A DNA stretch of 64,000 bases from an uncultured Actinomycetes bacterium. Its GTDB lineage: Bacteria > Actinomycetota > Thermoleophilia > Solirubrobacterales > Solirubrobacteraceae. Made by a program: the position numbers and the translations under genes. Position 1 is the stretch's first letter. Each line of letters begins with the position of its first letter. The notes under the pieces were generated by a model. It was given only the letters and a program-made list of their open reading frames with translations. It did not search any database and had not been told where the DNA came from. Below, in pieces: positions 19,766-48,578 of this stretch. The stretch lies in assembly GCA_963700655.1 (NCBI GenBank), contig CAVOYJ010000002.1:11212-75211 (forward strand), in the 5' to 3' direction.

Positions 19766-20699
19766 TCAGTACAGCGATTCGTCGTCATCGTCGTCGTCAT
19801 CCAGTTCCGCCGGCGACCACACCGGCCGCTCCATCCCCGCCCCCAGGAACCCGACCGAGAACCGCCGGCCCAGCTCGGTCCGCGCGCGCTTCCAGATCGC
19901 CTGCGCCCGCTCGTTGAGCACGCCGCGCTCGATCGACACGTCGATCCGGTCGAAGCCGCGCGCCTCGCTCGCACCGTCGGCCAGCTCCTCGTACGACGCG
20001 CGCAGACCCTGCAGGTCACGCCGCAGCTCAGCGGACATCGGCAGCGCATCCGCCGCGATGGGCCCGGTGGACGCCGACGGATCCCACCAGCGCACGTCGC
20101 CCTTCCCATCCGCCACGAGCACGAGGCGCGGGCGCTTCGCGCGCGACGGCCGCGTGAACTCGCAGCGCCGCCTCGGTGTCGACCTCGACGAATGCGGGGT
20201 GGAAGACGAGCAGGTCCAGGCTGCTGCGCCGGTCGCCGTCCGCTTCACGGTCCTCGGTCAGGACGATGGCGGTCTGCTCGAGCCCGAACTCGATCGCGAC
20301 CTCGGTGATCGCGGCCGGCCGGTCGAGCAGGCTGCCGGCGCGGCGCAGCTCGTCGCGATCCCAGACGCCGATCTCGGGCTCTCCGTCGTCACCGGCGTCG
20401 GGCACGAGCCGGACGACGGAGCCGGGGTCGAACGCGTCCTCCTGGAGCTGCTCGTCGTCGTGCGTGTGGACGGCCATGGTTGTGATCCGAGCGCCGTAGG
20501 CGCTGAGCAGCGGGTCGGTGCGGTCGATCAGCGGGCCGCCCGGAAGCCGGAGCTGGAACCCGTACTCGAACCAGCTGTTGTGGCCGGTGGTCCGGGTCGG
20601 CAGGAGCGGGTGAAGGGCGAGACGCAGCGGGGTGGAAGGGCTCACGCAGACGGGTCGTCGGGCGACGTGCCGATCTGACAGCGTGGTCCGTCCGGTCAC
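19766..20699 (-). pseudogene. Hypothetical protein with poly-Asp C-terminus, frame broken near 20160-20185
   Basis: The ATG at 20699 overlaps the upstream stop (ATGA). The N-half (..AVHTHDDEQLQEDAFDPGSVVRLVPDAGDDGEPEIGVWDRDELRRAGSLLDR..) is in the frame of ORF 20028..20699. The C-half (RPRLVLVADGKGDVRWWDP...SPAELDDDDDDDESLY) is in the frame of ORF 19766..20248. Confidence 0.5.
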
Positions 20700-21036
20700 C
20701 CGTAGCGCCCGCCTTCCTGGAGTCCGAGCAGCGTGACCCAGACGTCGGAATACACGTGGGCGCGGCCGGTCCCCTGCCGCTCCGCCACCGCGTTCTTGAA
20801 GTTCGGGTAGTCGATCTCCTTCGCGAGGGCGGCGGCCACGCCCTCGCCCACACCTCCCGCGGGACCGACGCCCGGAAGCGGTAGTCGCGCTCCGGCGTCT
20901 CCTCCAGCTCGAGCCCGGGGATCAGGTCCGCGAGCGACTCGAGGTCTTCGCGTACGCGCGCGCGCACGAGCACGTTTCCGTCCTCGTGGTGATCGGCGAC
21001 CACCGAGTAGAAGCCGCGGGTCGTCATGAGCCACAT
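20696..21036 (-). pseudogene. Conserved hypothetical protein, frame broken near 20855-20865
   Basis: MWLMTTRGFYSVVADHHEDGNVLVRARVREDLESLADLIPGLELEETPERDYRFRASVPREVW is followed in another frame by GEGVAAALAKEIDYPNFKNAVAERQGTGRAHVYSDVWVTLLGLQ. The start overlaps the upstream stop (TGATG). Confidence 0.5.
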
Positions 21037-21767
21037 CAGGCGGCCTCCTCGAGTCGGATCATCAGGGCGTGCAGCAGGTCGGCGGCGTCGGTCGGGTCGT
21101 CGTCGGGCTCGAGCTCGATCGCGCGCCGGTAGGCCGTCTGCGCCTCGCCGTCCTCGCCGATCGCCTCGGCGGCCTTCCCGTACCAGCACCAGTTCCACGC
21201 GCCGGCGGGCGCGAGCTCGGCGTAGTAGCGCAGGTGGCGGTAGGCCTCGTGGAAGCGGCCCAGCTCGTAGAGCGTGTAGCCGAGCGCGAAGTGCGCCATG
21301 CAGTCGCCGGCCTCCAGGCAGTCGAGCCAGTCGGCGAGCGCGGCCTCGCCCTGCGTGTTCACGCCGGCGCTGAAATAGACGCGGTTGATGGTCGGCTCGC
21401 TGCCGAACAGCGCGCGGGCCGCGAGCACGGTCTCACCCACCGTCGCCTCGGTCAGGCCGAGCTGCGGGACGTGGAAGCGCGGGCCGTCCCAGACCTCGTC
21501 CAGGTCGCGGGCGTCCTCGTCGAAGGTCGAGAGGCTCACGATCTTGAAGCCGACCTCGCGGCCGCCCGGGGCGTCGAGCAGGAACCCGATGTGGTGGTGC
21601 ACGCCGCGCCACAGCTCGCTCGGCTGGCCGTCGTCGATGCGCCCGAACTCGAGCGCGACCAGCCAGTCGTAGTCGGGCAGGTGGTTGAGATAGAGACGGA
21701 TGTCGCTCACACCCACGGGTCGTCTCGCGCGGCGCGGATCTGACGCCGCGACCGCGCCGGCGGGCAT
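21036..21767 (-). CDS. TPR-like repeat protein
   Basis: The C-terminal half (AHFALGYTLYELGRFHEAYRHLRYYAELAPAGAWNWCWYGKAAEAIGEDGEAQTAYRRAIELEP) is typical TPR text. The start is uncertain: ATG 21767 or GTG 21710. Confidence 0.6.
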   Translation of the reverse strand: MPAGAVAASDPRRARRPVGVSDIRLYLNHLPDYDWLVALEFGRIDDGQPSELWRGVHHHIGFLLDAPGGREVGFKIVSLSTFDEDARDLDEVWDGPRFHVPQLGLTEATVGETVLAARALFGSEPTINRVYFSAGVNTQGEAALADWLDCLEAGDCMAHFALGYTLYELGRFHEAYRHLRYYAELAPAGAWNWCWYGKAAEAIGEDGEAQTAYRRAIELEPDDDPTDAADLLHALMIRLEEAA

Positions 21768-21777
21768 CCTTCACCTC

Positions 21778-22257
21778 GTGTCCGACGCCGGCCTCGTGCT
21801 CATCGGCCTGGCGATCCTCGCCGGGATCGTCGGCATCATCGTGCCCGTTCTCCCCGGCGCGCTGCTCGTGGTCGGGGCGATCCTGGTGTGGGCGCTGATC
21901 GTGTCCTCGGCGACGGGCTGGGCGGTGCTGGCGGCCGCCATCGTGCTGATCGGCGCCGCGCAGATCGTGAAGTACCTCGTCCCCGGGCGGCGGATGCGCG
22001 ACGCCGGCGTGCCCAACAGCACGATCGTCGCGGGCGTCGTCGTGGGCATCGTCGGCTTCTTCGTCATCCCCGTCGTCGGGCTCTTCCTCGGCTTCCCCGC
22101 CGGGGTCTACCTGGCCGAGCGCCGCCGCCTGGGACCCCACCACCACGCGTGGGAGTCGACGAAACACGCGCTGAAGGCCCTCGGGCTCTCGATCCTCATC
22201 GAGCTGACCGCCGTGCTGCTCGTCGCCGGGGTGTGGCTGACGGTCGTGCTCAGCTGA
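21778..22257 (+). CDS. DUF456-family membrane protein
   Basis: 159 aa from the GTG at 21778. Four TM segments with PVLPGALLVVGAILVW and FLGFPAGVYLAE, the typical DUF456 layout. Confidence 0.65.
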   Translation: MSDAGLVLIGLAILAGIVGIIVPVLPGALLVVGAILVWALIVSSATGWAVLAAAIVLIGAAQIVKYLVPGRRMRDAGVPNSTIVAGVVVGIVGFFVIPVVGLFLGFPAGVYLAERRRLGPHHHAWESTKHALKALGLSILIELTAVLLVAGVWLTVVLS

Positions 22258-22813
22258 GGTCGCCGCGCTCGCGGAGCAGCCGCTCGACCCGCTCGTCGTC
22301 GAGGACGAGTGCCGTCGTCAGGACCGCCTCGAGCCGGCCCTGCGCGTCGGCGAGCGACAGTCGCAGCGCGAGGTCGCGTCGCGGGTTCGGTCCGCGGGCC
22401 GGGGTGAGGATGTCCCGCACGCTCGCGCGGACCGCCGCGACGAGCTTGGTCATCGCCTCGGCGTCGGTGAAGCCGTGCTCGGCGACGGCGAGGCCATCCA
22501 GCGCGTAGGTCCACGTGTCGGGACGGTGGTGTCGGGTCGCGCGGACGACGAGCGGCGGCGCCTCGTCCGTCCGCCAGGGATGTCCCTCCGGCCCCGCCGG
22601 TGGGCTGATCACGACGATGCGCGTTTCGCGACCGTCCTCGACCGGCGCCTCACCCCCGCCCCAGGAGGCCGCGAGCTCCATGAGCGAGCCGCCGCAGATC
22701 GGACAGCACGCGAGCCCGTGGTCGGGCGCGGCGGACTGCGCCTCGAGCAGCGCGCCGCACCCCCCACACGACAGCGTCGCCGTGTAGACCACGGGCTCAG
22801 GCCCGTCGCTCAC
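22250..22813 (-). CDS. Zinc-ribbon protein of unknown function (second gene of the DUF6569-like operon)
   Basis: 187 aa. Four-Cys ribbon CGGC-x16-CCPIC near the N-terminus. The start overlaps the upstream stop by 4 nt. The C-terminal domain is not recognised. Confidence 0.6.
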   Translation of the reverse strand: MSDGPEPVVYTATLSCGGCGALLEAQSAAPDHGLACCPICGGSLMELAASWGGGEAPVEDGRETRIVVISPPAGPEGHPWRTDEAPPLVVRATRHHRPDTWTYALDGLAVAEHGFTDAEAMTKLVAAVRASVRDILTPARGPNPRRDLALRLSLADAQGRLEAVLTTALVLDDERVERLLRERGDLS

Positions 22814-23781
22814 CGCAGGCGCCTGCGCGACGGCCTGGCGACCCCACCGACGATGTCCTCCCGTGAGGTCGAGCTCGGGAACGCGCAGAGCGCGACCACC
22901 TCGTCCTCGAAGGACAGGCTGCCGCCGACGAGCCGATCACCGACCAGCGTGTGCGCCTCACCGATGCCCGGAGTCGGGACGGGCCGGCGCGACGCGTCGA
23001 GGACCCGCGCGAGGAACGCACCGGCCCGCGTCGGGTCGGCCGGGTCACGCCCCTGCACCGGCCGGGCCGACAGCCCATCCAGCGCATAGCCGCGCACGAG
23101 GCGGTCATGCAGCGCCGCGAACACCTCGGCGCGCCCGACGACGTCCAGCGCGATCGGCGCGCCGCCGACGCATGCGAGCGCCCCGACCTGATCGGTCACG
23201 GGCTCGATGTCGTCGGCGAGCGCGCCGATCTCCCCCCGACGCTGCTCGAAGAGGTCTCCGAACTTGGAGCTCTCCGAGTCGACGCCGAAGCGCTGGAGCC
23301 GCGAGCCGACCTCCTGCCAGACCTCGCCCTGGGCGGGTCGCCCGGCGAGCCCCTGCTCTTCACTGCGCAGGGCCGACTCACGCTTGATGCGCCGCAGCGA
23401 CGGGTCGTCGGCGTGCGGTGCGGGTGCGAAGTGCTCGTCGCGGCGGCGGCCGTCCCAGCGGCCCTGCTCGACGCAGCTGACGGGCACCTCGATCTGGGCG
23501 CCGGCGCCGACGAGGACGCTGGTGTCCATCGCGCGGTCCTGCTGGGCGCCGATGACCTGCTCGCCCTCGTACAGGAGCAGCGCCTGGTCGGTCGGGTTGC
23601 CGACGAGCAGGCGGTTGACGGACGCGCCCTGGTCGAGCTCCTTGACGAACGCGCCGTGCTGGATGGCGGTGGAGTAGGCGCGGTACGGCAGGACCGGCGG
23701 TGGTCCGAAGACCGGGAAGACGGCGAGCGGGCCGACGACCTGCGGCTCGCCGAGGGTGAGCTGGGTGGTGAGGGTGTCCAT
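22810..23781 (-). CDS. DUF6569 / 'ARPP-1'-like family protein
   Basis: 323 aa. The N-terminal core LAVFPVF...YSTAIQHGAFVKELDQGASVNRLLVGNPTDQALLLYEGEQVIGAQQDRAMDTSVLVGAGAQIEVPVSCVEQGRW matches, from memory, the conserved L(L/Y)xGExLxGAKQNR...IPVxCVExGRW core of that family. Confidence 0.6.
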   Translation of the reverse strand: MDTLTTQLTLGEPQVVGPLAVFPVFGPPPVLPYRAYSTAIQHGAFVKELDQGASVNRLLVGNPTDQALLLYEGEQVIGAQQDRAMDTSVLVGAGAQIEVPVSCVEQGRWDGRRRDEHFAPAPHADDPSLRRIKRESALRSEEQGLAGRPAQGEVWQEVGSRLQRFGVDSESSKFGDLFEQRRGEIGALADDIEPVTDQVGALACVGGAPIALDVVGRAEVFAALHDRLVRGYALDGLSARPVQGRDPADPTRAGAFLARVLDASRRPVPTPGIGEAHTLVGDRLVGGSLSFEDEVVALCAFPSSTSREDIVGGVARPSRRRLR

Positions 23782-23838
23782 GCCCGGTGGGTCGCCCCCG
23801 CTGCAGAAGGTCTGACAGCGGCTGTCACACCCAGCCCG

Positions 23839-24252
23839 TCACTCCGCCTGGACAGTCACCACCTCGAGCCCCTCGATGCCCGCGAAGTCCGCGGGGTTGC
23901 ACGTGTAGATCGGAACGTCGCGCGCGATCGCCGTCGCGGCGATCATCGCGTCGTAGGCGCGAGCGGCGGGCTTGCGGCCGGCTCGCCGCAGCGAGGCGGC
24001 GACCTGACCGAACGCGCGGGCTGCGGCGGCGTCGAACGGCAGCGGGTCGAAGTCCGCCTCCGCCTGTTGCAGATGTGCCTGGCGGGCCGAGCGCTCGCGC
24101 TCATCGGCGGCGACAAGTGGACCGACCGAGAGCTCGGCGAGCGTGACCGTCGTGATCAGCGGCTCGGCCGGCAGCACTGAAGGTTCGGTCAGGCGGCTGA
24201 GCAGGATCACGGTCGATGTGTCGAGCACGCCGCGTGAAGGTGCGACGCTCAC
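23839..24252 (-). CDS. vapC: PIN-domain toxin (VapC-like)
   Basis: 137 aa. GVLDTSTVILL (first Asp), TLAELSVGP, and AAARAYDAMIAATAIARDVPIYTCNPADF, the typical PIN text. The start overlaps the antitoxin stop by 4 nt. Confidence 0.85.
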   Translation of the reverse strand: MSVAPSRGVLDTSTVILLSRLTEPSVLPAEPLITTVTLAELSVGPLVAADERERSARQAHLQQAEADFDPLPFDAAAARAFGQVAASLRRAGRKPAARAYDAMIAATAIARDVPIYTCNPADFAGIEGLEVVTVQAE

Positions 24253-24485
24253 AGCCGCGGGTCGAGCGTTGCGTCGATGTCAGCGCGCAGGGCGCCGGCG
24301 TCGACGTGCGGGAGGCGAGCCCACCGCTCGAGCAGCAGCTCCGCGGGCAGCGGGCGGTCAGGAAGCGCGCTGAGCTGCGCGACCGGCGTCCCCGCGCGCG
24401 TGATCGTCACCACTTCGCCGCGTGCGGCCCGCTCGACGATGTCCCCTCCGTGGTTGCGCAGGTCGCGGATGCTCGCCTCAGCCAT
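24249..24485 (-). CDS. Type II antitoxin (Phd/YefM-like)
   Basis: 78 aa. MAEASIRDLRNHGGDIVERAARGEVVTITRAGTPVAQL, immediately upstream of and coupled to the PIN gene. Confidence 0.8.
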   Translation of the reverse strand: MAEASIRDLRNHGGDIVERAARGEVVTITRAGTPVAQLSALPDRPLPAELLLERWARLPHVDAGALRADIDATLDPRL

Positions 24486-24597: not shown

Positions 24598-26781
24598 ATG
24601 GACCGTGCCGCTGCCGGGGCGCCTGACCGCGCCGCCGTGCTGATCACCGTGCTGCTCGCGGTGGTGGCCGTGCTCGCGCCCGCGCCGGCGAACGCGGAGA
24701 TCTCGGGATCGGCGGTCCGCGCGCAGCAGGCCGGCCTCATCGACGTCGGCCTGTCGCATGCGTGCGCGATCCTCACGGCCGGCGAGGTGCGCTGCTGGGG
24801 CCTCAACACCGCCGGCCAGCTCGGGCAGGGAGACACCGCGCCGATCGGGGACAACGAGCACCCAGACGCGGCGGCGGCGGTTCGGCTCGGCGCGGGCCGC
24901 CGCGCGGTGCAGATCGCGCTCGGCTCCAGCCACACGTGTGCACTCCTGGACGATGGGACCGTGCGCTGCTGGGGCCTCAACACCGTCGGCCAACTCGGGC
25001 AGGCGAACACCGCGCCCGTCGGCGACGACGAGACGCCCGACGCGGTCCCGCCGGTCAGCCTCGGCGGCCGCGCCGTCGCGATCAGCGCAGGTGGCGACAA
25101 CACGTGCGCCGTGCTCGATGGCGGCACGGCACGCTGCTGGGGGCCGGACACCTACGGCCAGCTCGGCACCGCGGGCGACGCCCTGACGACGATCGGCGAC
25201 GACGAGACGCCGGCCCAGGGCCTGAAGCTCGGCGTCGACCTGCCGGTGCAGACGATCGCGATGAGCACGACCCACGCCTGCGCGCTGCTGCAGGGCGGGC
25301 GCGTCGGCTGCTGGGGCCAGGGCTCGTTCAACGCGCTCGGGTACGGCAACGCGGACACGATCGGCGACGACGAAGACCCGCAGGACGCCGGCTACGTGAA
25401 CCTCGGCACCGGCCGCACGGCGACCGCGATCAGCACGGGGGGCTACGACTCCTGCGCGATCCTCGACGACGCGAGCGCGACCTGCTGGGGCTACGGCCAG
25501 TACGGGCGCCAGGGCCGCGGCGACGAGAACTCGGTCCCGAACCCCGCTCTCGTGCCGCCGCTGGACCTCGGCGTCGGCGCGCGCGTGCAGGCAATCGCCG
25601 CCGGTGGCGTCATGACCGGCTACGCCCATGCCTGCGTGATCCTCGGCGACGGGTCGCTGCGCTGCTGGGGCCGCAACCCGAGCGGCCAGCTCGGCTACGG
25701 GAACCTCACCGACATCGGGGACACCGCCGGCGAGACCGCAGCCTCCGGCGGGCCGGTCGACATCGGCGCCGGCCGCACCGCGGTCGCGACCGCCGCCGGC
25801 GGCACGTCGAGCTGCGCGCTGCTCGACGACGGGACGCTTCGCTGCTGGGGACTGAACAGCTCCGGCCAGCTCGGCATCGCGTCGATCGCGTCGGTCGGCG
25901 ACGACGAGCTTCCGGGCAGCGTCCCGCCGGTGCGCCTTGGCGGCGCGCTGACGGGCGGACTGGGCGACGCGTCGCTGACGCTCGCCATCGACGCGGCGCA
26001 GCGCACCGTCGGCCAGGATGTCCGCCTGACCGCGACGCTGCGATCCAGCGGGCTCGACGCGGTCGGCGCGCCCGCGGTGCAGCTGTCGCTGCCGGCGGGG
26101 CTGGCGCTCGTCACCGCCGCCCCGTCCGCCGGGACCTTCGCGGGCGGGACGTGGACCCTGCCGAGCGTCCCCACGGGGACGGACGCGACGCTGACCGTCA
26201 TCGCACGGGTCGGTGCGCCCGGCCCGCAGACCGCCGCTGCCGAGCTGACGGCGACCGCCGCGAGCTTCACCGACGCGGACTCGACACCCGGCAACGGGGT
26301 GGCGACCGAGGACGACCAGGCGAGCGCGACCGTGACCGGCGTCGCCGAACCCGTGGCGACCGGGACGAGCGCGCCGCAGCTGACTGCGCTCTCGCTGTCG
26401 CGGCGGACGTTCGCGGTCGGGCGCGGCCCGACGGCGGTGAGCGCGACCGCCCGCGGGACGACCGCGCGCTTCGTGCTGTCGGGCCCGGCGAGCGTGCGGT
26501 TCACGGTGACGCGCCGGCTGCCTGGGCGCCGATCGGGGAACCGCTGCGTGGCGGTCGGGCGCACTCGGCCCAGCGCGCGGCGGCGTTGCACGCGGACGGT
26601 GACGGTCGGGACGCTCAGGCGCTCCGGGCTCGCCGCCGGCGCGCGGACGCTTGCGTTCAGCGGGCGGATCGGGCGGCGCGCGCTGCGGCCTGGGAGGTAC
26701 TCGCTCGTGCTGCTGCCGACCGGGCCGACGGGTCTGCCCGGGGCCGCGCGCGCGATCGGGTTCCGGGTGGTCGCGCGCTGA
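24598..26781 (+). CDS. Secreted RCC1-repeat beta-propeller protein with DUF11-like domain and Arg-rich C-terminal module
   Basis: 727 aa with a signal peptide (VLLAVVAVLAPAPANA). About 7 repeats of HxCA(L/I)LxxGxxxCWGxNxxGQLG. A DUF11-like segment (VRLTATLRSSG...TLTVIARV). C-terminal module FVLSGPASVRFTVTRRLPGRRSGNRCV...RCTRTVTVG...FSGRIGRRALRPGRYSL. Confidence 0.8.
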   Translation: MDRAAAGAPDRAAVLITVLLAVVAVLAPAPANAEISGSAVRAQQAGLIDVGLSHACAILTAGEVRCWGLNTAGQLGQGDTAPIGDNEHPDAAAAVRLGAGRRAVQIALGSSHTCALLDDGTVRCWGLNTVGQLGQANTAPVGDDETPDAVPPVSLGGRAVAISAGGDNTCAVLDGGTARCWGPDTYGQLGTAGDALTTIGDDETPAQGLKLGVDLPVQTIAMSTTHACALLQGGRVGCWGQGSFNALGYGNADTIGDDEDPQDAGYVNLGTGRTATAISTGGYDSCAILDDASATCWGYGQYGRQGRGDENSVPNPALVPPLDLGVGARVQAIAAGGVMTGYAHACVILGDGSLRCWGRNPSGQLGYGNLTDIGDTAGETAASGGPVDIGAGRTAVATAAGGTSSCALLDDGTLRCWGLNSSGQLGIASIASVGDDELPGSVPPVRLGGALTGGLGDASLTLAIDAAQRTVGQDVRLTATLRSSGLDAVGAPAVQLSLPAGLALVTAAPSAGTFAGGTWTLPSVPTGTDATLTVIARVGAPGPQTAAAELTATAASFTDADSTPGNGVATEDDQASATVTGVAEPVATGTSAPQLTALSLSRRTFAVGRGPTAVSATARGTTARFVLSGPASVRFTVTRRLPGRRSGNRCVAVGRTRPSARRRCTRTVTVGTLRRSGLAAGARTLAFSGRIGRRALRPGRYSLVLLPTGPTGLPGAARAIGFRVVAR

Positions 26782-26852
26782 GCGCGCCGCCACCTGTCAG
26801 ATCCCCGCCACACCCCGCGACTCCAGCGCATCCCCAGCGCAAGGAGCCCGGC

Positions 26853-28121
26853 ATGCACGTGAACGCCCATCTCGACCTCGACGTCGTCGCCATCGAACAG
26901 GCCGACGAGGTCACCCTCATGCTCGAGCTCGACGCCCCGCCCGCGCCGACTCCGAGCCCGCGCCCGCCGGCGGCCGTGCAGATCGTGCTCGACCGCAGCG
27001 GCTCGATGGGTCATGGACGCCTGGAGGCCGCCAAGGATGCGATCACCGCGCTCGTCGACCGGCTGGACCCCGCCGACAGCCTCGGCGTCGTCGCGTTCGA
27101 CGACGAGGTGCAGATGGTGCTCCCCACGCGCACGCTGGACGGCCCGAACCGCGCGGCGGCGAAGAGCGCCGTCGCCCACCTGCACTCGGGCGGCAGCACG
27201 AACCTCTCCGCCGGGCTGCTGCGCGGCCTGCAGGAGGCGCGCCGCGCGGCCGGCGACGGCGGGGGCGGCGCGACGCTGCTCCTGCTCTCCGACGGCCGCG
27301 CCAACCAGGGCGAGACCGACCCCGCGATGCTCGCGCGCGTGGCCGCCGGCGGCCGCGAGCACGGCATCACCACGACGACGGTCGGCATCGGCCTCGGGTA
27401 CGACGAGCTGCTGCTCTCCGAGGTGGCCGGTGGCGGCCAGGGCAACCACGTCTTCGCCGAGGAGGGCGACGCCGCGGCGGCCGCGGTCGCCGGCGAGGTC
27501 GAGGGCCTGCTCTCGAAGACCGTGCAGGCAGCGAGCCTGCTGATCCGTCCCGCGGGCTCCGTCGCGTCCGTGACCGTGTGGAACGACCTGCCCGGCAACC
27601 CGGTCTCCGGCGGCATCATGGTCGAGCTCGGGGATCTGTGGGCCTCCGAGCAGCGCAAGCTCGTCCTGACGTTCAAGGTGCCGGCGATGACGGCGCTCGG
27701 CCTCGCCGAGATCGCCCAGCTCGAGCTGCGGTACGTCACCGTCCCCGCCTTCGTCGAGCAGACGATCACCATCCCCGTGCACGTGAACGTCGTGCCGGGC
27801 GACCAGGCGGCCGGGCGGATCCCGGACACGAAGGTCCGCACCGAGCTCGTCTACCAGCAGGCGCAGAGCGACAAGCGGCGCGCCGCCGAGGCGCTGCGCG
27901 AGGGCGACATCGACAAGGCGGTCATCAGCTACGAGGAGGCCCGGACCCGCCTCGCCGCGCAGATGGAGCAGAGCCCGGACCCGGAGCTCCAGGAGGAGAT
28001 CGGCGTGCTTGGTCAGCTGCAGCACCGCGCGCGCAAGGAGGCCATGTGGTCGGCGAAGTCCGCCCGCATGGACGCCCACTACAAGAGCCGCAAGCGTGGG
28101 CGCCGGCGCCCGGAGATGTGA
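26853..28121 (+). CDS. Cytoplasmic von Willebrand factor type A (vWA) domain protein
   Basis: ATG at 26853 after AAGGAG, no signal peptide. MIDAS DRSGSM...GSTN...LLSDGRAN. A beta-rich middle domain, then a helical basic C-terminus (...HYKSRKRGRRRPEM). Confidence 0.8.
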   Translation: MHVNAHLDLDVVAIEQADEVTLMLELDAPPAPTPSPRPPAAVQIVLDRSGSMGHGRLEAAKDAITALVDRLDPADSLGVVAFDDEVQMVLPTRTLDGPNRAAAKSAVAHLHSGGSTNLSAGLLRGLQEARRAAGDGGGGATLLLLSDGRANQGETDPAMLARVAAGGREHGITTTTVGIGLGYDELLLSEVAGGGQGNHVFAEEGDAAAAAVAGEVEGLLSKTVQAASLLIRPAGSVASVTVWNDLPGNPVSGGIMVELGDLWASEQRKLVLTFKVPAMTALGLAEIAQLELRYVTVPAFVEQTITIPVHVNVVPGDQAAGRIPDTKVRTELVYQQAQSDKRRAAEALREGDIDKAVISYEEARTRLAAQMEQSPDPELQEEIGVLGQLQHRARKEAMWSAKSARMDAHYKSRKRGRRRPEM

Positions 28122-28133
28122 GACTGTCAGATC

Positions 28134-28811
28134 GTGGAAGCGGCGCACGACCCCACTGATGTGAGAGATGGAGATGAGCGCATCCTGCGGCTGCTGGTCG
28201 CTGCCCGAAAGGCCGGCGACGGGCCGGCCGTCACCCGTCTGTGGGCGGAAATGCTGACGATCAACTTCCCGCGCGTCGAGCAGCTGGTGTACCTGGAGAG
28301 CCGCCACGACCTGAGCCCGCAGGAGCAGCAGGACGCGCTCCAGCTCGCCGCGTGGCGGATCGCGATGATCCCGCAGCGCAAGCGCGGGTTCGAGGGCACC
28401 TCCAAGGGCGAGTGGATCAACCTCGTCAAGGCGATCGTCCGCGCCGCGTGCATCGACACGCAGCGCAAGGAGGCCCGCCACTCCTCCAGGAAGGCCCCGC
28501 TCCACACCGCCGACGACGACGGCGGCGCGCAGCTGACGCAGGACGCCTACCAGGCGCTCCTGCGTCAGGAGGAGGAGCGCGAGGACGAAGAGCAGACACG
28601 CGAGGAGTTGCAGGCGCTCAGCGAGAAGTTCCTCGCATGGGCGCTCCCCAGGCTCCGCGAGAGTTACCGGATGATGATCGAGTGTGACCTGCAGGGCCTG
28701 CCGATCGAGGAGATCATGGACAGGCTGAACCGCAAGCGCGACGCCGTGTACAAGCTGCGCGAGCGGGCGATGAAGGCACTCATGAAGCTTCGCGAGGAGT
28801 ACGAGGCATGA
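28134..28811 (+). CDS. Sigma-70 family (ECF-like) RNA polymerase sigma factor
   Basis: 225 aa, 12 nt after the vWA stop. Region-2-like FEGTSKGEWINLVKAIVRAACIDTQRKE. Region-4-like YRMMIECDLQGLPIEEIMDRLNRKRDAVYKLRERAMKALMKL. An acidic linker sits between them. Confidence 0.7.
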   Translation: MEAAHDPTDVRDGDERILRLLVAARKAGDGPAVTRLWAEMLTINFPRVEQLVYLESRHDLSPQEQQDALQLAAWRIAMIPQRKRGFEGTSKGEWINLVKAIVRAACIDTQRKEARHSSRKAPLHTADDDGGAQLTQDAYQALLRQEEEREDEEQTREELQALSEKFLAWALPRLRESYRMMIECDLQGLPIEEIMDRLNRKRDAVYKLRERAMKALMKLREEYEA

Positions 28812-29437
28812 GGACCACCCACCAGTTGCTCGGGCAGTTCATCGAGGCATGGAATGCCGGCGAACGCCCGGACGTGCGCGACTACCTTGCCCGCGCGAGC
28901 GCGGACGAGCGAGACGACCTGTCGACGCTGCTGTCGGCCTGGCTCGAGCTCGCGCCGACGCCCGCGTGGGATGAGGCGACGCTCGACGAGATCTCAGCGA
29001 CCCCCGCACTGCGCGCCGCGCTGGAGGCCGCGGCCACCGGGCCGCTGTCGGTCGGCGAGCAGGTGCTGGCGTTGCGCGAGCGCGCCGGGCTGGGCGTGAG
29101 CGAGGTCGCGCGCCGGCTCGCACGGCTGTTCGGGCTGCGCGACGAGCCGCGCGCGACCGCCTACCTGGAGGAACTCGAGCGCGGCGAACTGGACCCGGGC
29201 GGGCTGTCACGGAGACTGCTCGCCGGGCTCGCGGCGATCCTCGGCGCCGACCGCGACGAGCTGACATTCCAGCCGGCCATGAGCTCCGGGCAGACGTTCT
29301 TCAGATCCGAAGGCGAAGCGGACGAGTGGTTCGCGCAGGGCGTCGACGCGCTCAGCCGCGCGGCGCTTGCGCCCGCGCCGGAGAGCGGGCCGCTCGACGA
29401 GCTCGACCTGCTGTTCGTCGGCGGGCCGGAGGCGTAG
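28808..29437 (+). CDS. Hypothetical protein with HTH-like segment (possible sigma-factor partner)
   Basis: 209 aa. The start overlaps the sigma stop by 4 nt. N-terminal LLGQFIEAWNAGERPDVRDYL helix. XRE-like VGEQVLALRERAGLGVSEVARRLARLFG. Confidence 0.55.
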   Translation: MRTTHQLLGQFIEAWNAGERPDVRDYLARASADERDDLSTLLSAWLELAPTPAWDEATLDEISATPALRAALEAAATGPLSVGEQVLALRERAGLGVSEVARRLARLFGLRDEPRATAYLEELERGELDPGGLSRRLLAGLAAILGADRDELTFQPAMSSGQTFFRSEGEADEWFAQGVDALSRAALAPAPESGPLDELDLLFVGGPEA

Positions 29438-29444
29438 GCGGCGC

Positions 29445-29594
29445 TCAGCGGCGCGTGGCGTGGGCCGCCCCGAGGTCCACCGCGATCGAGAGGATCAGCG
29501 TCGCGGTCCACGCGTTCACCGGATCGAAGAGGAGCGGCTCGTCACCGCCGATCAGGTTCGCGATGAGCCAGATGAGGAACCAGAGCATCGTCAT
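29445..29594 (-). CDS. Possible 49-aa membrane peptide
   Basis: Own translation, below the ORF-track cutoff: MTMLWFLIWLIANLIGGDEPLLFDPVNAWTATLILSIAVDLGAAHATRR. Two hydrophobic segments. It starts 37 nt after the ImmA-like stop on the same strand. Confidence 0.35.
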   Translation of the reverse strand: MTMLWFLIWLIANLIGGDEPLLFDPVNAWTATLILSIAVDLGAAHATRR

Positions 29595-29631
29595 GGTGCG
29601 CAGTCTCTCGCTTGGTGGTGGTGTGGTCGGG

Positions 29632-30414
29632 TCAGAGCCCGATCGCCTCGGCGCCTTGGGCGAGGGCGGACGGGTCGCAGGCGGCGGCGCGCGCGATCGC
29701 CGGCAGCGACGCTCTGCGCAGGATCGCCGCGTCGAGGCCGCCCCCCGCGAGCTGGGGTGAGATCCGCGGCAGGTCGTCCTCGCAGATCGTCGCCAGGCCG
29801 TCCTCGAGCGGCGGCGGATCGAGGTGGGCCCAGACCTCGTCGGCCAGGCCCTCGTCGATCTCGCGCTTGAGGCGCGTGAAGCGCTTCTCGCTGACGAGCT
29901 TCAGCGTGTTCAGGCGGTAGAGCGCGGCGATCGTGGAGACGCCGAAGCGGGCGGCGATCGTGACGACGTCCTCGAGCGTCGGCTTCCGCGTGACCTGATC
30001 GCAGATCGCGTCGGCGGGCATGAGGAACTGCGCCGCGAACGCGTTCGCCTGCACCTCGCGCGAATCGGTGTCCTGCCCGCCGAGGGTCTTGAACGTCTCG
30101 ATGGGAAGGTCGTGATCGTGACCGCAGCGGACGTGCCCGAGCTCGTGCGCGAGGGTGAAGCGCCGGCGGACGGCGGGCCGCGTGCCGTTCACCCACAGGA
30201 CGGTCGCGTCGCCGCCGCGCCAGCAGACGCCGTCGATGTGCTCGGGCATGTCGGCGATGACGACGGGGATGCCTGCCGACGTCTCGACCGTGGCGAGCAC
30301 GCAGTCGAGCGGGGCGGTGGGGTCGATGCCGAGCGCTTCACGGCATTCACGCGCGCGCTTGGCGCCGATGTTGGTGTCCTTGCCGGCCACGGGTGGATGG
30401 TGACGCACCCTCAC
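29632..30414 (-). CDS. ImmA/IrrE-family metallo-endopeptidase (DUF955)
   Basis: 260 aa. HExxH as FTLAHELGHVRCGH, downstream EVQANAFAAQFLMP, the typical ImmA/IrrE core. Confidence 0.8.
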   Translation of the reverse strand: MRVRHHPPVAGKDTNIGAKRARECREALGIDPTAPLDCVLATVETSAGIPVVIADMPEHIDGVCWRGGDATVLWVNGTRPAVRRRFTLAHELGHVRCGHDHDLPIETFKTLGGQDTDSREVQANAFAAQFLMPADAICDQVTRKPTLEDVVTIAARFGVSTIAALYRLNTLKLVSEKRFTRLKREIDEGLADEVWAHLDPPPLEDGLATICEDDLPRISPQLAGGGLDAAILRRASLPAIARAAACDPSALAQGAEAIGL

Positions 30415-47001: not shown

Positions 47002-48578
47002 CCCTCGGCGCGTTCGCCAACGAGCCGCTCGCCGAGCTGCGCCGCGCACCCGAGCGCGAACGGCTGCTCGCGGCGCTGCGTGCGCTCGACGCCGAGCCGC
47101 CGCTGCGCGCCGCGGTCTGGATCGGCGAGGAGCAGCGCCTGGACGACGCGCTCGTCTCGACCGACCCCGGCGACCCCGGGCGAGTCGTCGCCACGGCGCC
47201 GTGCGCGAGCGCTGCGGAGGTCGAGGCCGCCGTCGCGACCGCGCGCGCGGCGTTCGCGGACTGGGCGGCCACCCCGGCCACCGACCGCGCCGGCGCGCTC
47301 CTCCGCGCCGCGGCGCTGCTGCGCGAGCGCCGCCCGCGCCTCACCGCGCTCGCCGTGCGCGAGTGCGCCAAGCCGTGGGACCAGGCGGACGGCGACGTCT
47401 GCGAGGCGATCGACTTCCTCGAGTACTACGCGCGCGCTGCCGTCACCCTCGCGGAGCGCGACGCCGGCGGCGAGCTGCTGCAGCCACCGGGAGAGCGCAA
47501 CGCGATGACCCACCGGCCGCGCGGCGTCTGCGGCGTCATCGCGCCGTGGAACTTCCCGCTCGCGATCCCGCTCGGCATGACCGCGGCGGCGCTTGCGACC
47601 GGCAACTGCGCGCTGCTCAAGCCCGCCGAGCAGGCGCCCGGCTGCGCGCTGGAGCTCGTCCGCGCGCTGCGCGAGGGCGGCGTCCCCGCGGGCGCGGTCG
47701 CGCTGCTTCCCGGCGCGGGCGAGACCGGGGCGGCGCTGGCCCGGCACCCGGACGTGCAGACGCTGGCGTTCACCGGCTCGGTGCCGGTCGGCCTGGACAT
47801 CATCGCGACCGCGGCGAGCGCGCCCGCGCGGGGCGCCAGGCACCTGCCGCGCGTCGTCGCCGAGCTCGGCGGGAAGAACTGCGTGATCGTCGACGCCGAC
47901 GCGGACCTCGACGACGCGGTGCCGGGGATCGTCGGGTCCGCGTTCGCCTACGCGGGCCAGAAATGCTCGGCCGCCTCGCGGGTGCTCGTGCACGAGGCGA
48001 TCGCGGACGCGCTGCTCGAACGCCTGGCGGGCGCCGCCGAGGCGCTCGTCGTCGGACAGGCCGACGCATTCGGCACGACCGTTTCCCCGGTCATCGAGCG
48101 CAGCGCGCAGGAGCGCGTCGCCCGGTACGCACAGCTCGCCGCCGCGACCGGACGCGTCGTCACCGGCGGCGAGGTCGCCGTTCCCGCCGGCGGCTGGTTC
48201 TGCGCACCGGTCGTCGCGACCGACCTGCCGGCCGACTCGCCGCTGCTGCACGAGGAGATCTTCGGCCCCGTGCTGGCGGTCGAGCGCGTCGCCGGCGTCG
48301 ACGAGGCGTGCGACCGGGTCGACGCACTGGCGTTCGCGCTGACAGGCGGGCTCTACTGCCGCAACCCGCACACCGTCGAGCACGTCGTGGCGCGCTCCCC
48401 GGTGGGGAACCTCTACGTCAACCGCCCGATCACCGGCGCGATGGTCGGCCGCCAGCCGTTCGGCGGCAACCGCCTGAGCGGGACCGGCTCCAAGGCGGGC
48501 GGGCCCGACTACCTCCTGCACTTCACCGAGCCGCAGGTCGTCACCGAGAACACGGTGCGCCACGGGCTCGTCGTCTGA
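46998..48578 (+). CDS. pruA: L-glutamate gamma-semialdehyde (1-pyrroline-5-carboxylate) dehydrogenase
   Basis: The GTG at 46998 overlaps the PRODH stop (GTGA). FANEPLAELRR N-terminus, aldehyde dehydrogenase motifs ELGGKN and catalytic Cys in AGQKCSAASR. Confidence 0.85.
   Translation: MTLGAFANEPLAELRRAPERERLLAALRALDAEPPLRAAVWIGEEQRLDDALVSTDPGDPGRVVATAPCASAAEVEAAVATARAAFADWAATPATDRAGALLRAAALLRERRPRLTALAVRECAKPWDQADGDVCEAIDFLEYYARAAVTLAERDAGGELLQPPGERNAMTHRPRGVCGVIAPWNFPLAIPLGMTAAALATGNCALLKPAEQAPGCALELVRALREGGVPAGAVALLPGAGETGAALARHPDVQTLAFTGSVPVGLDIIATAASAPARGARHLPRVVAELGGKNCVIVDADADLDDAVPGIVGSAFAYAGQKCSAASRVLVHEAIADALLERLAGAAEALVVGQADAFGTTVSPVIERSAQERVARYAQLAAATGRVVTGGEVAVPAGGWFCAPVVATDLPADSPLLHEEIFGPVLAVERVAGVDEACDRVDALAFALTGGLYCRNPHTVEHVVARSPVGNLYVNRPITGAMVGRQPFGGNRLSGTGSKAGGPDYLLHFTEPQVVTENTVRHGLVV

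Follow-up and report, generated by a model that had tools for sequence, protein, structure and literature searches.

Do two overlapping genes, one coding for a protein of the ARPP-1/DUF6569 family and the other for a small zinc-ribbon protein (ZnR), make up a conflict system of their own? The question is raised by the 64-kb stretch of DNA analysed here, hereafter named the window, in which an earlier note had seen such a minimal, self-contained pair. The operon is real: both open reading frames were recovered with the sizes, positions and 4-nt overlap described, and their GC3 values (0.93 for ARPP-1, 0.91 for ZnR) are the signature of real genes. As a self-contained defence pair, it finds only partial support: what had been seen is one piece of a larger island whose units are linked by a promoter motif, and ARPP-1 is the conserved core of the locus. 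Features are listed in Table 1.

The product of the first gene matched the Pfam family PF20208 'ARPP-1' in a profile search (E=4.1e-72, 243.4 bits for a cutoff of 27), and its residues 7-301 cover the profile over its full length (positions 1-297 of 297). The family had thus been named correctly, but not its accession, given as PF20209. Close homologues carry the NCBI name 'DUF6569 family protein', and the 323-aa product contains both LLLYEGEQVIGAQQDR and IEVPVSCVEQGRW. At least 977 homologues were found. In an alignment of 26 homologues sharing 50-100% identity, the invariant residues are C103 and Q81, together with E105, R108, W109 and D110; Q80 is nearly invariant. We predict from this alignment that C103, Q81, E105, R108, W109 and D110 form an active-site cluster. 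The sole description of ARPP-1, which is comparative-genomic, reports an absolutely conserved cysteine and glutamine for the family, and proposes an SRAP-like reaction of the protein with the sugars of ADP-ribose, nucleotides or DNA (PMC9503650). As previously stated, no biochemical function is established: in our literature search, no paper was found that names DUF6569 or PF20208, and no PDB relative was found by sequence. The protein is cytoplasmic and has a conserved basic C-terminal tail (ARPSRRR).

Because the GTG start of ZnR overlaps the ARPP-1 stop (GTGA, 4 nt shared), ZnR is translationally coupled to ARPP-1. Both genes are under purifying selection (dN/dS 0.20-0.44 for ARPP-1 and 0.45-0.51 for ZnR), with dN ~0.24 in ZnR vs ~0.10 in ARPP-1 for the same genome pairs. 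ZnR belongs to an unrecognised family, as had been supposed: it matched no Pfam, NCBIfam or PADLOC model, and in PADLOC-DB v2 neither ARPP-1, ZnR, VapC nor Phd had any match at E<=0.1. The zinc ribbon is supported by a CxxC...CxxC pattern (C16-x2-C19 ... C36-C37-x2-C40) and has four beta-strands in the AF2 model (pLDDT ~90); an FmdB-type zinc-ribbon profile matched weakly, under its cutoff (E=0.006). This ribbon varies within the family, being replaced by a helical domain in one member (L010/P0130) and missing from short members.

All 22 representatives of the family align via the C-terminal domain, which is modelled with a pLDDT of 92-98 over its core (86.6 for the whole protein) and shows the element order beta-beta-beta-alpha, alpha-alpha, beta, alpha. 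Its best Foldseek matches, 3k6q_A (E=0.018) and 3k6q_B (E=0.044), are not significant by E-value, nothing being found at E<1e-3; they have a prob of 1.00 over 89 columns at an rmsd of 3.3. The 3k6q entry is described as 'antitoxin part of a putative TA system', of the HicB type, and 2yzt was also matched (prob 0.85). Searches of Pfam and NCBIfam gave no HicB or HicB_lk_antitox match for this domain, and PDB profile searches were also empty. The model hints at a HicB-antitoxin-like fold.

Table 1. Features of the ARPP-1 island and its flanks (window positions).
Feature	Position	Strand	Details
HIRAN-family gene	19766..20645	-	motif 20654-20680; frame broken ~20155-20165; 7/80 loci
p112N-family gene	20696..21036	-	frame broken ~20836-20848 (GC3 phase change); 17/80 loci
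TPR243 protein (N-terminal domain unrecognised + TPR)	21036..21710	-	TPR_2 E=1.2e-8; 24/80 loci
ZnR accessory gene	22250-22813	-	187 aa, GTG start, directly downstream of ARPP-1
ZnR C-terminal conserved domain	22253..22552	-	aa 88-187, defining core of the family
ZnR N-terminal four-cysteine zinc ribbon	22655..22792	-	aa 8-53 (C16, C19, C37, C40)
ARPP-1 / DUF6569 gene	22810-23781	-	323 aa, ATG start
ECF-type promoter-like motif TGTCAGA-N16-CGAC	23791..23817	-	ends 9 nt before ARPP-1 ATG
Phd-VapC type II toxin-antitoxin pair	23839..24485	-	upstream of ARPP-1, gap 57 nt
vWA-domain protein	26853..28121	+	VWA E=1.4e-18; 14/80 loci
Sigma-70-family (ECF-like) sigma factor	28161..28811	+	motif 28125-28151 ahead
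HTH (Xre-type) protein	28808..29437	+	209 aa, 4-nt overlap with sigma gene
M78 (ImmA/IrrE-type) metallopeptidase	29632..30414	-	Peptidase_M78 E=3e-22

The operon is connected to its surroundings by a motif, TGTCAG(A/G)-N16/17-CGAC, usually placed 9 nt ahead of a start codon. Given this distance from the ARPP-1 ATG, the ARPP-1-ZnR transcript would be leaderless or near-leaderless, and independent of vapBC; we consider it probably leaderless. Six exact matches were found in the window for 1.18 expected, a number reached in none of 100 shuffles. When one mismatch was allowed and a start codon required 7-11 nt downstream, four sites were found in the 64 kb (ahead of the ARPP-1, sigma, HIRAN and TPR genes), all of them inside the island. 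Window genes preceded by the motif are ARPP-1, the sigma-70-family gene, vWA, TPR and the frameshifted HIRAN gene. The vWA copy (26795-26821) lies 31 nt upstream of the ATG, with an AAGGAG ribosome-binding site in between, and the TPR243 copy (21719-21745), with one mismatch, ends 8 nt before the GTG at 21710.

The same motif recurs among the 80 species-level loci of our ARPP-1 census: 158 matches were counted against a mean of 8.4 (maximum 61) in permuted controls, a 19-fold difference. Of these matches, 79 are followed by ATG or GTG at +8 to +10, where the controls give 0.6 (maximum 5). In 57 of these loci, an exact copy is found no more than 140 nt ahead of ARPP-1. Over 94 loci and the window, the distance from CGAC to an ORF start is exactly 9 nt for 65 of the 179 matches and 10 nt for 16; the matches precede ARPP-1 (37), sigma (21), TPR243 (7), vWA (7), stand-alone ZnR-family genes (7), c7 (6) and c8 (5); as the TGTCAG and CGAC columns were preset in the search pattern, they are not independent evidence, and independent support for the motif comes only from start-codon spacing, enrichment and variety of downstream genes. 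Exact copies were also present in ARPP-1-clade loci of the cultured Paraconexibacter antarcticus, Paraconexibacter sp. AEG42_29 and Solirubrobacter taibaiensis, in the last two just upstream of ARPP-1.

This motif would be the promoter recognised by the nearby ECF-like sigma factor, by which several of the island genes are apparently switched on. In the window protein only region 4 was detected (Sigma70_r4_2, E=5.9e-4, under the Pfam cutoff), and its membership of the sigma family, in which Sigma70_r2 was found in 14 members (best 4e-13) and r4_2 reaches 2.9e-16, is transitive, by BLAST clustering. The sigma gene is predicted to be autoregulated and to activate the ARPP-1-ZnR promoter. The HTH protein encoded next to it (HTH_31, E=3.8e-5, under the Pfam cutoff) is a candidate cleavable repressor or anti-sigma partner. 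Among the 80 loci, sigma was found in 45, HTH in 46 and M78 in 43, with all three together in 39; in two loci (L023, L043) they form one operon with ARPP-1, all genes running in the same direction.

The island spans ~11 kb (about 19.7-30.4 kb), is variable, and comprises four or five predicted transcription units: ARPP-1-ZnR, sigma-HTH, vWA, TPR with p112N downstream, and HIRAN. In relatives, the gene found most often immediately downstream of ARPP-1 is TPR243, which abuts the ARPP-1 stop in L005, L007 and L008. The p112N gene has an intact homologue in L003, and relatives have it linked to HD_4, or fused with it. The HIRAN-family gene lies 2.2 kb downstream of ARPP-1 and not adjacent to it, where the ARPP-HIRAN two-gene neighbourhood of Iyer et al. 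2022 has the two side by side; it has single-gene homologues in L001 and L005, and 2 of the 5 members of this family matched HIRAN (PF08797, best E=1e-11). The presence of two frameshifted regulon genes may mean that the island is decaying here, or may result from assembly indel errors. Other accessory genes are found in relatives: HD_4 (20 of the 80 loci, and also L001 and L003), SF1 helicase-nucleases (17 of 80), REase-ARP PF22558 (L005) and Macro (L001, L007).

To state that no partner is visible, as had been done, was therefore too strong, given the vWA, frameshifted HIRAN and M78/HTH/sigma (28161-30414) genes of the island and the HD_4, Macro, REase-ARP and helicase-nuclease genes added in relatives. 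The conflict setting itself holds, the locus looking like a variable conflict island. Of the membrane genes reported on the flanks, only DUF456, convergent and downstream of ZnR, was confirmed; the other flanking genes code for the TPR protein, a secreted RCC1/DUF11 protein and the vWA protein. The PIN/Phd pair (VapC, 23839-24252, PIN E=2.7e-8; Phd, 24249-24485, TIGR01552 35.3 bits for a cutoff of 20.8) is upstream on the same strand as described, at 57 rather than 58 nt. Its adjacency to ARPP-1 is conserved in none of the 80 loci; we rejected VapBC as a partner, and regard it as a lineage-specific insertion that came to lie between ARPP-1 and the vWA-sigma operon.

How tightly, then, is ZnR tied to ARPP-1? 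In a classical toxin-antitoxin pair, ARPP-1 would be a toxin neutralised by direct binding of ZnR, a HicB- or MqsA-like antitoxin. The toxin-first order with a 4-nt overlap, as in hicAB, would fit, as would the HicB-type antitoxin found as best structural match, a segment of longer ZnR-family members that looks Phd/YefM-like by eye, the about twofold faster evolution of ZnR, and the toxin-antitoxin genes among the neighbours. The distribution of ZnR argues otherwise. The family is rare (22 clusters among 1.84 billion representatives), and a member was found within 7 kb of ARPP-1 in 3 of the 80 loci, the other 77 having none. It is lacking beside the nearest ARPP-1 orthologues (80-82% identity; L005, L007, L008), in L006 ARPP-1 is intact and the adjacent ZnR is a pseudogene with an internal deletion, and 5 of the 10 ZnR-family contexts examined, mostly short contigs, are without ARPP-1. 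Moreover, the promoter is of a sigma type common to non-TA genes and not an antitoxin-autoregulated operator, and ZnR has no recognisable DNA-binding domain. Since ARPP-1 usually occurs without ZnR, obligatory neutralisation is unlikely, and we give a toxin-antitoxin pair very little chance of being the right reading. Nor does this census, a check set beforehand, support a self-contained two-gene system: ZnR is largely not conserved next to ARPP-1, except in a few very divergent loci. These exceptions also bear on the opposite proposal, that ZnR is a small orphan gene without any part in ARPP-1 biology, which came to lie between ARPP-1 and the TPR gene by insertion at a recombination hotspot. 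Such an insertion pattern is seen in comparison with L005, L007 and L008; the same interval gained DUF456, and the upstream one VapBC and RCC1; ZnR is sporadically distributed, with a relaxed dN/dS (~0.47); and in L093 and L094 a distant ZnR paralogue adjoins an orthologous DUF456 gene (80% identity), ARPP-1 being absent. However, stand-alone ZnR-family genes share the motif of ARPP-1 (TGTCAG-N17-CGAC, 8-9 nt before the start; L085-87, L090, L092, L093/94), and in L015 ZnR is gene 4 of a sigma-HTH-M78 operon. ZnR lies directly 3' of ARPP-1 in L001, L002, L003, L010, L091 and L090, with translational coupling kept in L002 and L003, and in L091 the adjacency recurs at very deep divergence (52% identity for ARPP-1, 25% for ZnR), as it also does in L090. 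Simple hitchhiking is improbable in our eyes. By its adjacency at deep divergence and the common promoter motif, ZnR appears still linked to ARPP-1, and by its distribution it appears to be a rare, dispensable add-on.

The locus might also be an ARG-centred anti-ADP-ribosylation system (Iyer et al. 2022), in which ARPP-1 processes the ADP-ribose coming from an ADP-ribosylglycohydrolase (ARG) and a phosphatase. Several accessories of such systems are indeed present in the island or in relatives: vWA, HD_4 (an alarmone-type HD phosphatase), REase-ARP, Macro, SF1 helicase-nucleases and HIRAN. Against this, profile searches gave no ARG match among the window island genes, which include neither a rhodanese-phosphatase nor another coupled phosphatase of the calcineurin-like, HD or HAD type (HD_4 is found only in related loci). 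Of the families recurring among the 150 unlabelled genes nearest to the 80 loci, the best 25 of 128 do not include ARG, which may still occur singly. ARG-centred systems are regulated by Nudix or WYL transcription factors (PMC9503650), whereas no Nudix- or WYL-HTH negative regulator was found here, the regulators being of the sigma-70 family, Xre-type HTH and M78 types. Finally, the recurrent partners HIRAN, helicase-nuclease and M78/HTH point to DNA, not to protein-ADPr. We therefore lend little credence to an ARG-centred system here, and read the island as a variant, lacking ARG, of the conflict systems predicted for ARPP.

The motif shared across island genes would make the ARPP-1-ZnR operon one unit of an ECF-sigma/HTH/M78-controlled island, with ARPP-1 as the core and ZnR as a non-essential accessory, and we hold this explanation to be a reasonably probable one. 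In the signalling order that we infer, a stress or infection signal would activate the M78 peptidase, which would abolish repression or anti-sigma activity by the HTH protein; the freed sigma factor would then amplify its own synthesis and activate ARPP-1-ZnR along with the remaining units. ARPP-1 is predicted to be an enzyme bearing the cysteine and glutamine. ZnR, produced in step with it, would be a fast-evolving accessory subunit, whose HicB-like C-terminal domain and swappable zinc ribbon most likely dock on ARPP-1 or on its nucleic-acid substrate. Once docked, it would modulate or target ARPP-1, and not act as an obligatory antitoxin. A more ambitious proposal, which we think unlikely as it stands, is a sigma-wired conflict or DNA-damage-response system of Thermoleophilia not described before, with a dedicated ECF-like sigma factor released by M78/HTH and firing leaderless transcripts, ARPP-1 acting on nucleic-acid sugars, and ZnR gating ARPP-1. 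Under that proposal, ARPP-1 would be a cysteine-dependent effector whose targets could be abasic sites, 3' ends or ADP-ribosylated DNA, and ZnR would represent a new class of specificity or inhibitor subunit, with a HicB fold and a zinc ribbon.

ARPP-1/DUF6569 is widespread, and gene context is the only ground on which a role in virus-host conflicts has been predicted for it. What is new here is the apparent promoter motif shared by ARPP-1 and island genes; together with its cognate sigma/HTH/M78 module, it offers a handle to induce ARPP-1 and to search for the inducing signal. The composition of the regulon (ARPP-1, vWA, TPR243, HIRAN, ZnR, c7, c8 and HD_4-linked genes) points to a nucleic-acid rather than a protein-ADPr chemistry. 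ZnR, a rare co-translated partner with an antitoxin-like predicted fold, would be a natural choice in pull-downs and for co-structures.

Compared with known systems, the gene pair resembles HicAB in having the larger partner first and the small one second, with overlapping stop and start, and the ZnR C-terminal domain model has the beta-beta-beta-alpha core in common with its best PDB match, the HicB-like 3K6Q (SWOL_0700). Unlike HicAB, there is no HicA gene next to ZnR, its neighbours being ARPP-1 upstream and DUF456 downstream, and ZnR lacks a Pfam HicB match and a C-terminal HTH or RHH. The motif is close to the ECF41 promoter, TGTCACA-n16-CGTC (PMC3426412): both are bipartite, with a ~16-nt spacer and a CG(A/T)C -10 element, and, as in ECF regulons, the motif is found upstream of the sigma gene and the regulon is small and local. 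It differs from that of ECF41 by its -35 (TGTCAG(A/G)) and -10 (CGAC) elements and by the start codon 9 nt past the -10, which implies leaderless transcription; moreover, in place of the classical anti-sigma or fused C-terminal domain of ECF regulons, an Xre-type HTH protein and an M78 peptidase are found here. Protease-repressor switches of the M78/HTH kind control immune operons, as CapP/CapH does, and mobile elements (bioRxiv 10.1101/2022.04.27.489752), and in CapH/CapP and ImmR/ImmA (IrrE/DdrO) as in the island, an M78 gene is beside an HTH gene and adjoins a candidate conflict operon. In the island, however, the sigma gene is interposed and co-transcribed with the HTH gene, whose 209-aa product has long flanking regions, and both cleavage and its activating signal are putative. 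As for the ARPP systems (Iyer et al. 2022), they differ by their ARG or rhodanese-phosphatase and their Nudix or WYL repressors, in place of which we found an ECF-like sigma factor, HTH, M78 and the motif, and the partners ZnR, TPR243, p112N and c7 are absent from their description. They share with the present locus the ARPP-1 domain with its conserved Cys and Gln, the co-occurrence of vWA, HD phosphatase, REase-ARP, Macro, helicases and HIRAN, and the organisation as a variable island, in which a conserved core is surrounded by swappable accessories.

ORF analysis of the window recovered both genes of the pair as the earlier note had described them. The product of the first, ARPP-1, had been assigned to DUF6569, and an HMM check bears this out, the PF20208 (ARPP-1) profile being covered entirely with E=4.1e-72; names of homologues include 'DUF6569 family protein [Solirubrobacteraceae / Baekduia]', which puts the organism among Solirubrobacterales actinobacteria. 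The product of the second, ZnR, carries the cysteines C16-x2-C19 and C36-C37-x2-C40, and its profile search returned zinc-ribbon matches, all sub-threshold. GC3 marks both as real genes (0.93 for ARPP-1, 0.91 for ZnR), and their dN/dS values (0.20-0.44 and 0.45-0.51, respectively) indicate purifying selection on both. The Phd/VapC pair is indeed encoded on the same strand, upstream of ARPP-1 at a distance of 57 nt rather than the 58 nt initially given. PADLOC yielded zero matches for ARPP-1, ZnR, VapC and Phd.

That the family has no established biochemical function agrees with our literature search: the sole description of ARPP found was comparative-genomic (Iyer et al., Viruses 2022, PMC9503650), and DUF6569 or PF20208 was not mentioned in the literature searched. 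ARPP is described there as an accessory of ARG-centred systems, which are predicted to undo viral ADP-ribosylation, the other components being rhodanese or HD phosphatases, vWA and TY chaperones, Macro/NADAR, REases and helicases; in two-gene contexts, it is also paired with HIRAN, WYL or a deacetylase (PMC9503650). An invariant Cys and an invariant Gln were reported, and an SRAP-like cross-linking of sugars was proposed (PMC9503650). In our alignment of 26 sequences, C103, Q81, E105, R108, W109 and D110 of ARPP-1 are invariant. PDB sequence and profile searches with ARPP-1 gave nothing significant; no solved structure is related to it by sequence. The possibility that ARPP-1 is a phage or plasmid gene was discarded (0 matches in 50,697 phage records, only four plasmid matches, all distant); the plasmid search found no ZnR.

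The two genes had been put forward as a candidate conflict/defence pair. A neighbourhood census of 80 ARPP-1 loci, each from a different GTDB species, did not show the zinc-ribbon gene to be a conserved partner: the ZnR family was found in only 3 of them. In the census, L010 has the C-domain only, ZnR of L015 comes fourth in a sigma-HTH-M78 operon and lies 3 kb away from ARPP-1, and that of L006 is an internal-deletion remnant adjoining an intact ARPP-1. The family is very small, as a word-indexed search of 5.8 billion proteins gave only 9 relatives and 1.84 billion cluster representatives, searched in full with an HMM, gave 22 matches. Its alignment runs through the C-terminal ~100 residues, while the N-terminus varies: most members carry a zinc ribbon there, P0130 and L010 a helical domain, short members no domain, and longer ones a Phd/YefM-like segment, judged by eye. 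In L001, L002 and L003, ZnR lies immediately 3' of ARPP-1, and the 4-nt overlap is kept in the latter two. Since a TPR gene abuts the ARPP-1 stop, with no ZnR, in the nearest ARPP-1 orthologues (L005, L007 and L008, 80-82% identity), ZnR is on these comparisons dispensable, a lineage-specific gene inserted between ARPP-1 and TPR. The adjacency of ARPP-1 and ZnR recurs in L090 and in L091 (ARPP-1 52% and ZnR 25% identical, 6-nt gap), which counts against random insertion. Among 10 distinct ZnR contexts, five are in an ARPP-1 island and the remainder come mostly from 2-6 kb contigs.

On two 2.9-kb contigs devoid of ARPP-1, a distant ZnR-family member (L093:2195-2809, L094:1704-2318) lies beside a PIN toxin gene and a DUF456 gene 80% identical to that of the window; the flank of DUF456 has the look of a hotspot for gain and loss of ZnR, PIN toxin-antitoxin pairs and ARPP-1. 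Neighbours of stand-alone ZnR genes (L085:1042-1824 (-), L088:1913-2812 (+) and L089:2104-3156 (+)) show D...E-x-K-like motifs by eye, and are possible PD-(D/E)xK nucleases on that impression; integrase and excisionase fragments are also present in L089. In an Acidimicrobiia MAG, a short ZnR-like ORF consisting of the zinc ribbon only follows ARPP-1 (L059:3432-3746 (+), HMM E=2e-4).

An AF2 model of ZnR built from a 9-sequence alignment was unusable (pLDDT 59), and a 25-sequence family alignment was used instead (pLDDT 86.6, pTM 0.70). The model comprises a four-stranded zinc ribbon (aa 8-70) and a C-domain with the order β90-95, β100-105, β110-114, α117-136, α146-157, α161-167, β169-172, α174-184. 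Foldseek against the PDB ranked first 3k6q (E=0.018, prob 1.00, 89 columns, rmsd 3.3), entitled 'antitoxin part of a putative toxin/antitoxin system', which we take to be a HicB-like protein; a small Thermus protein, 2yzt, was also matched (prob 0.85). No match fell below E=1e-3, so that the HicB-like character of the modelled C-domain is suggestive only. PDB sequence and profile searches with ZnR, its C-domain and the HIRAN-like core returned nothing significant, nor did a BFVD fold search.

The content of the islands is summarized in the table below. Counts come from jackhmmer or tblastn on six-frame ORFs, neighbour families being counted by jackhmmer over the 80 loci, because a GC3-based gene caller fused or extended some ORFs and left ARPP-1 uncalled in 12 of 84 loci. 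The window holds most of the recurrent neighbour families, and its island lies between dodecin and cysK at one end and an ABC transporter at the other.

Features of the window and recurrence of gene families in the 80 ARPP-1 loci
Feature	Position	Strand	Loci	Remark
HIRAN-family gene (p310 family)	19766-20645	(-)	7/80	frame broken ~20155-20165; two overlapping ORFs, p223 and p160
p112N	20696-21036	(-)	17/80	ATG 21036 overlaps TPR243 stop; frame broken ~20836-20848
TPR243	21036-21710	(-)	24/80	beyond ARPP-1 and ZnR
DUF456, longest ORF	21700-22257	(+)		would overlap TPR243 start region
ZnR	22250-22813	(-)		187 aa; GTG start overlaps ARPP-1 TGA stop
ARPP-1	22810-23781	(-)		323 aa; contains LLLYEGEQVIGAQQDR and IEVPVSCVEQGRW
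VapC	23839-24252	(-)		upstream of ARPP-1, same strand; PIN confirmed (Pfam)
Phd	24249-24485	(-)		upstream of ARPP-1, same strand; Phd confirmed
RCC1-repeat/DUF11, secreted	24598-26781	(+)
vWA	26853-28121	(+)	14/80
Sigma	28161-28811	(+)	45/80	count for sigma-like
HTH (HTH209)	28808-29437	(+)	46/80	next after sigma
M78 peptidase	29632-30414	(-)	43/80
Sigma, HTH and M78 together			39/80
HD_4			20/80
c7			17/80	~200 aa, C-terminal zinc ribbon
SF1 helicase / RecB-like nuclease			17/80

The p310 family was identified as HIRAN, PF08797 being matched by 2 of 5 members (best E=1e-11). REase-ARP (PF22558, E=9e-13) occurs in L005 and Macro in L001 and L007. ARG was not among the recurrent families listed (the best 25 of 128) for the 150 nearest unlabelled neighbours in the 80 loci; Sigma70_r2 is present in 14 of these neighbours. 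Pfam gave no matches for TPR243-N, p112N, c7, c8 and the proteins neighbouring stand-alone ZnR. Two genes of the window are interrupted within 1.3 kb: the p112N frame departs from its intact L003 homologue ('...REVWTAAAAALADEIDY...'), by either pseudogene formation or a long-read indel error, and L001 and L005 each have a single gene in place of p223 and p160.

RCC1/DUF11, Phd-VapC and DUF456 were not seen at equivalent positions in relatives and are insertions. The RCC1/DUF11 gene, together with Phd-VapC (23839-24485 (-)), separates the vWA-sigma operon from ARPP-1; in L006 and L010, vWA and ARPP-1 are immediate divergent neighbours. VapBC was rejected as an ARPP-1 partner (a close homologue in L053 only, 6 kb off), and so was DUF456, variable in position and orientation (L003, L006, L010, L093/L094). 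The Pfam match of DUF456 starts at residue 47 and its homologues have 159 aa; its true start is probably near 21778, which leaves a short divergent intergenic region containing the TPR243 promoter motif. The c7 protein has a C-terminal CxxC...CxxC zinc ribbon (e.g. L012:4167-4781 (-), L023, L030, L043, L046, L057), its gene sits after M78 or right before ARPP-1, often behind the same promoter motif, and functionally it may be a counterpart of ZnR.

When the 110 nt upstream of ARPP-1 were aligned for 14 loci, they were unconserved apart from one motif: TGTCAG(A/G), 16-17 nt, CGAC(C/T), and the ATG 9 nt further. The window has 6 exact matches for 1.18 expected, a number reached in 0 of 100 shuffles. 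Four of them stand ahead of ARPP-1, vWA and the genes for sigma and HIRAN; for vWA, a leader of 31 nt with an AAGGAG site intervenes. With at most one mismatch and a start codon 7-11 nt downstream, four sites are found in 64 kb, all in the island, and TPR243 is added. Across the 80 loci (1.04 Mb), 158 matches were counted, against 8.4 (sd 9.4, maximum 61) in 300 permuted-motif controls; 79 have an ATG/GTG at +8 to +10 (controls 0.6, maximum 5), and an exact motif lies within 140 nt upstream of ARPP-1 in 57 loci. Over 94 loci and the window, an ORF starts exactly 9 nt past CGAC for 65 of 179 matches; the genes served are ARPP-1 (37), sigma (21), TPR243 (7), vWA (7), stand-alone ZnR-family genes (7), c7 (6) and c8 (5). 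We infer that the adjacent sigma factor would autoregulate and drive a small local regulon, in which ARPP-1-ZnR would form one unit transcribed independently of vapBC, probably as a leaderless transcript. This predicted shared promoter is the strongest evidence for a functional tie of ZnR to ARPP-1. Between 21.9 and 24.7 kb, a scan for intrinsic terminators and sigma-70 promoters, ECF types lying outside its scope, gave zero sites, and a repeat search of 21-25 kb gave high-GC background only.

Exact motifs at 48318-48344 (-) and 24278-24305 (+) have no ORF start at the canonical distance and are probably chance matches; the former could be a distant regulon member. The motif also precedes a gamma-glutamylcyclotransferase/AIG2-like gene (L060:2442-2468, L067:1913-1939) and several singletons, and the content of the predicted regulon differs between species. 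A perfect palindrome, TGACAG-CGG-CTGTCA, at 23813-23827 (+) overlaps the -35 element of the ARPP-1 promoter. Loci L005, L007, L008 and L010-L012 have another TGTCAG, inverted and 20-40 nt upstream, that points toward the divergent sigma operon; the copy in the window may be a relic of this divergent promoter, now directed toward vapC.

Census and promoter together place ARPP-1-ZnR in a larger, apparently sigma-regulated island, and the idea of a minimal, stand-alone two-gene pair is abandoned. A toxin-antitoxin relationship between ARPP-1 and ZnR is disfavoured, as ARPP-1 normally occurs without ZnR and has outlived its deletion in L006. An island built as an ARG-centred system, the setting in which ARPP was described, is likewise disfavoured, because the defining ARG is absent among the families listed and the regulators differ. 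As to the target, a nucleic acid would be likelier than protein-ADPr, judging from the recurrence of HIRAN, helicase-nuclease and M78/HTH as partners.

In the best-supported model, an M78/HTH switch would control a dedicated ECF-like sigma factor, which would turn on ARPP-1-ZnR, vWA, TPR/p112N and HIRAN; ARPP-1 would be the conserved predicted enzyme, and ZnR an optional co-translated modulator or adaptor. The promoter and its regulon offer experiments a concrete starting point. The motif architecture matches that of ECF promoters such as ECF41, TGTCACA-n16-CGTC (PMC3426412), and the putative M78/HTH switch would be analogous to CapP/CapH and ImmA/ImmR. The island is best filed among the predicted ARPP conflict islands, as a new variant that is ARG-less, apparently sigma-regulated, and equipped with a rare accessory gene whose product may have an antitoxin fold.
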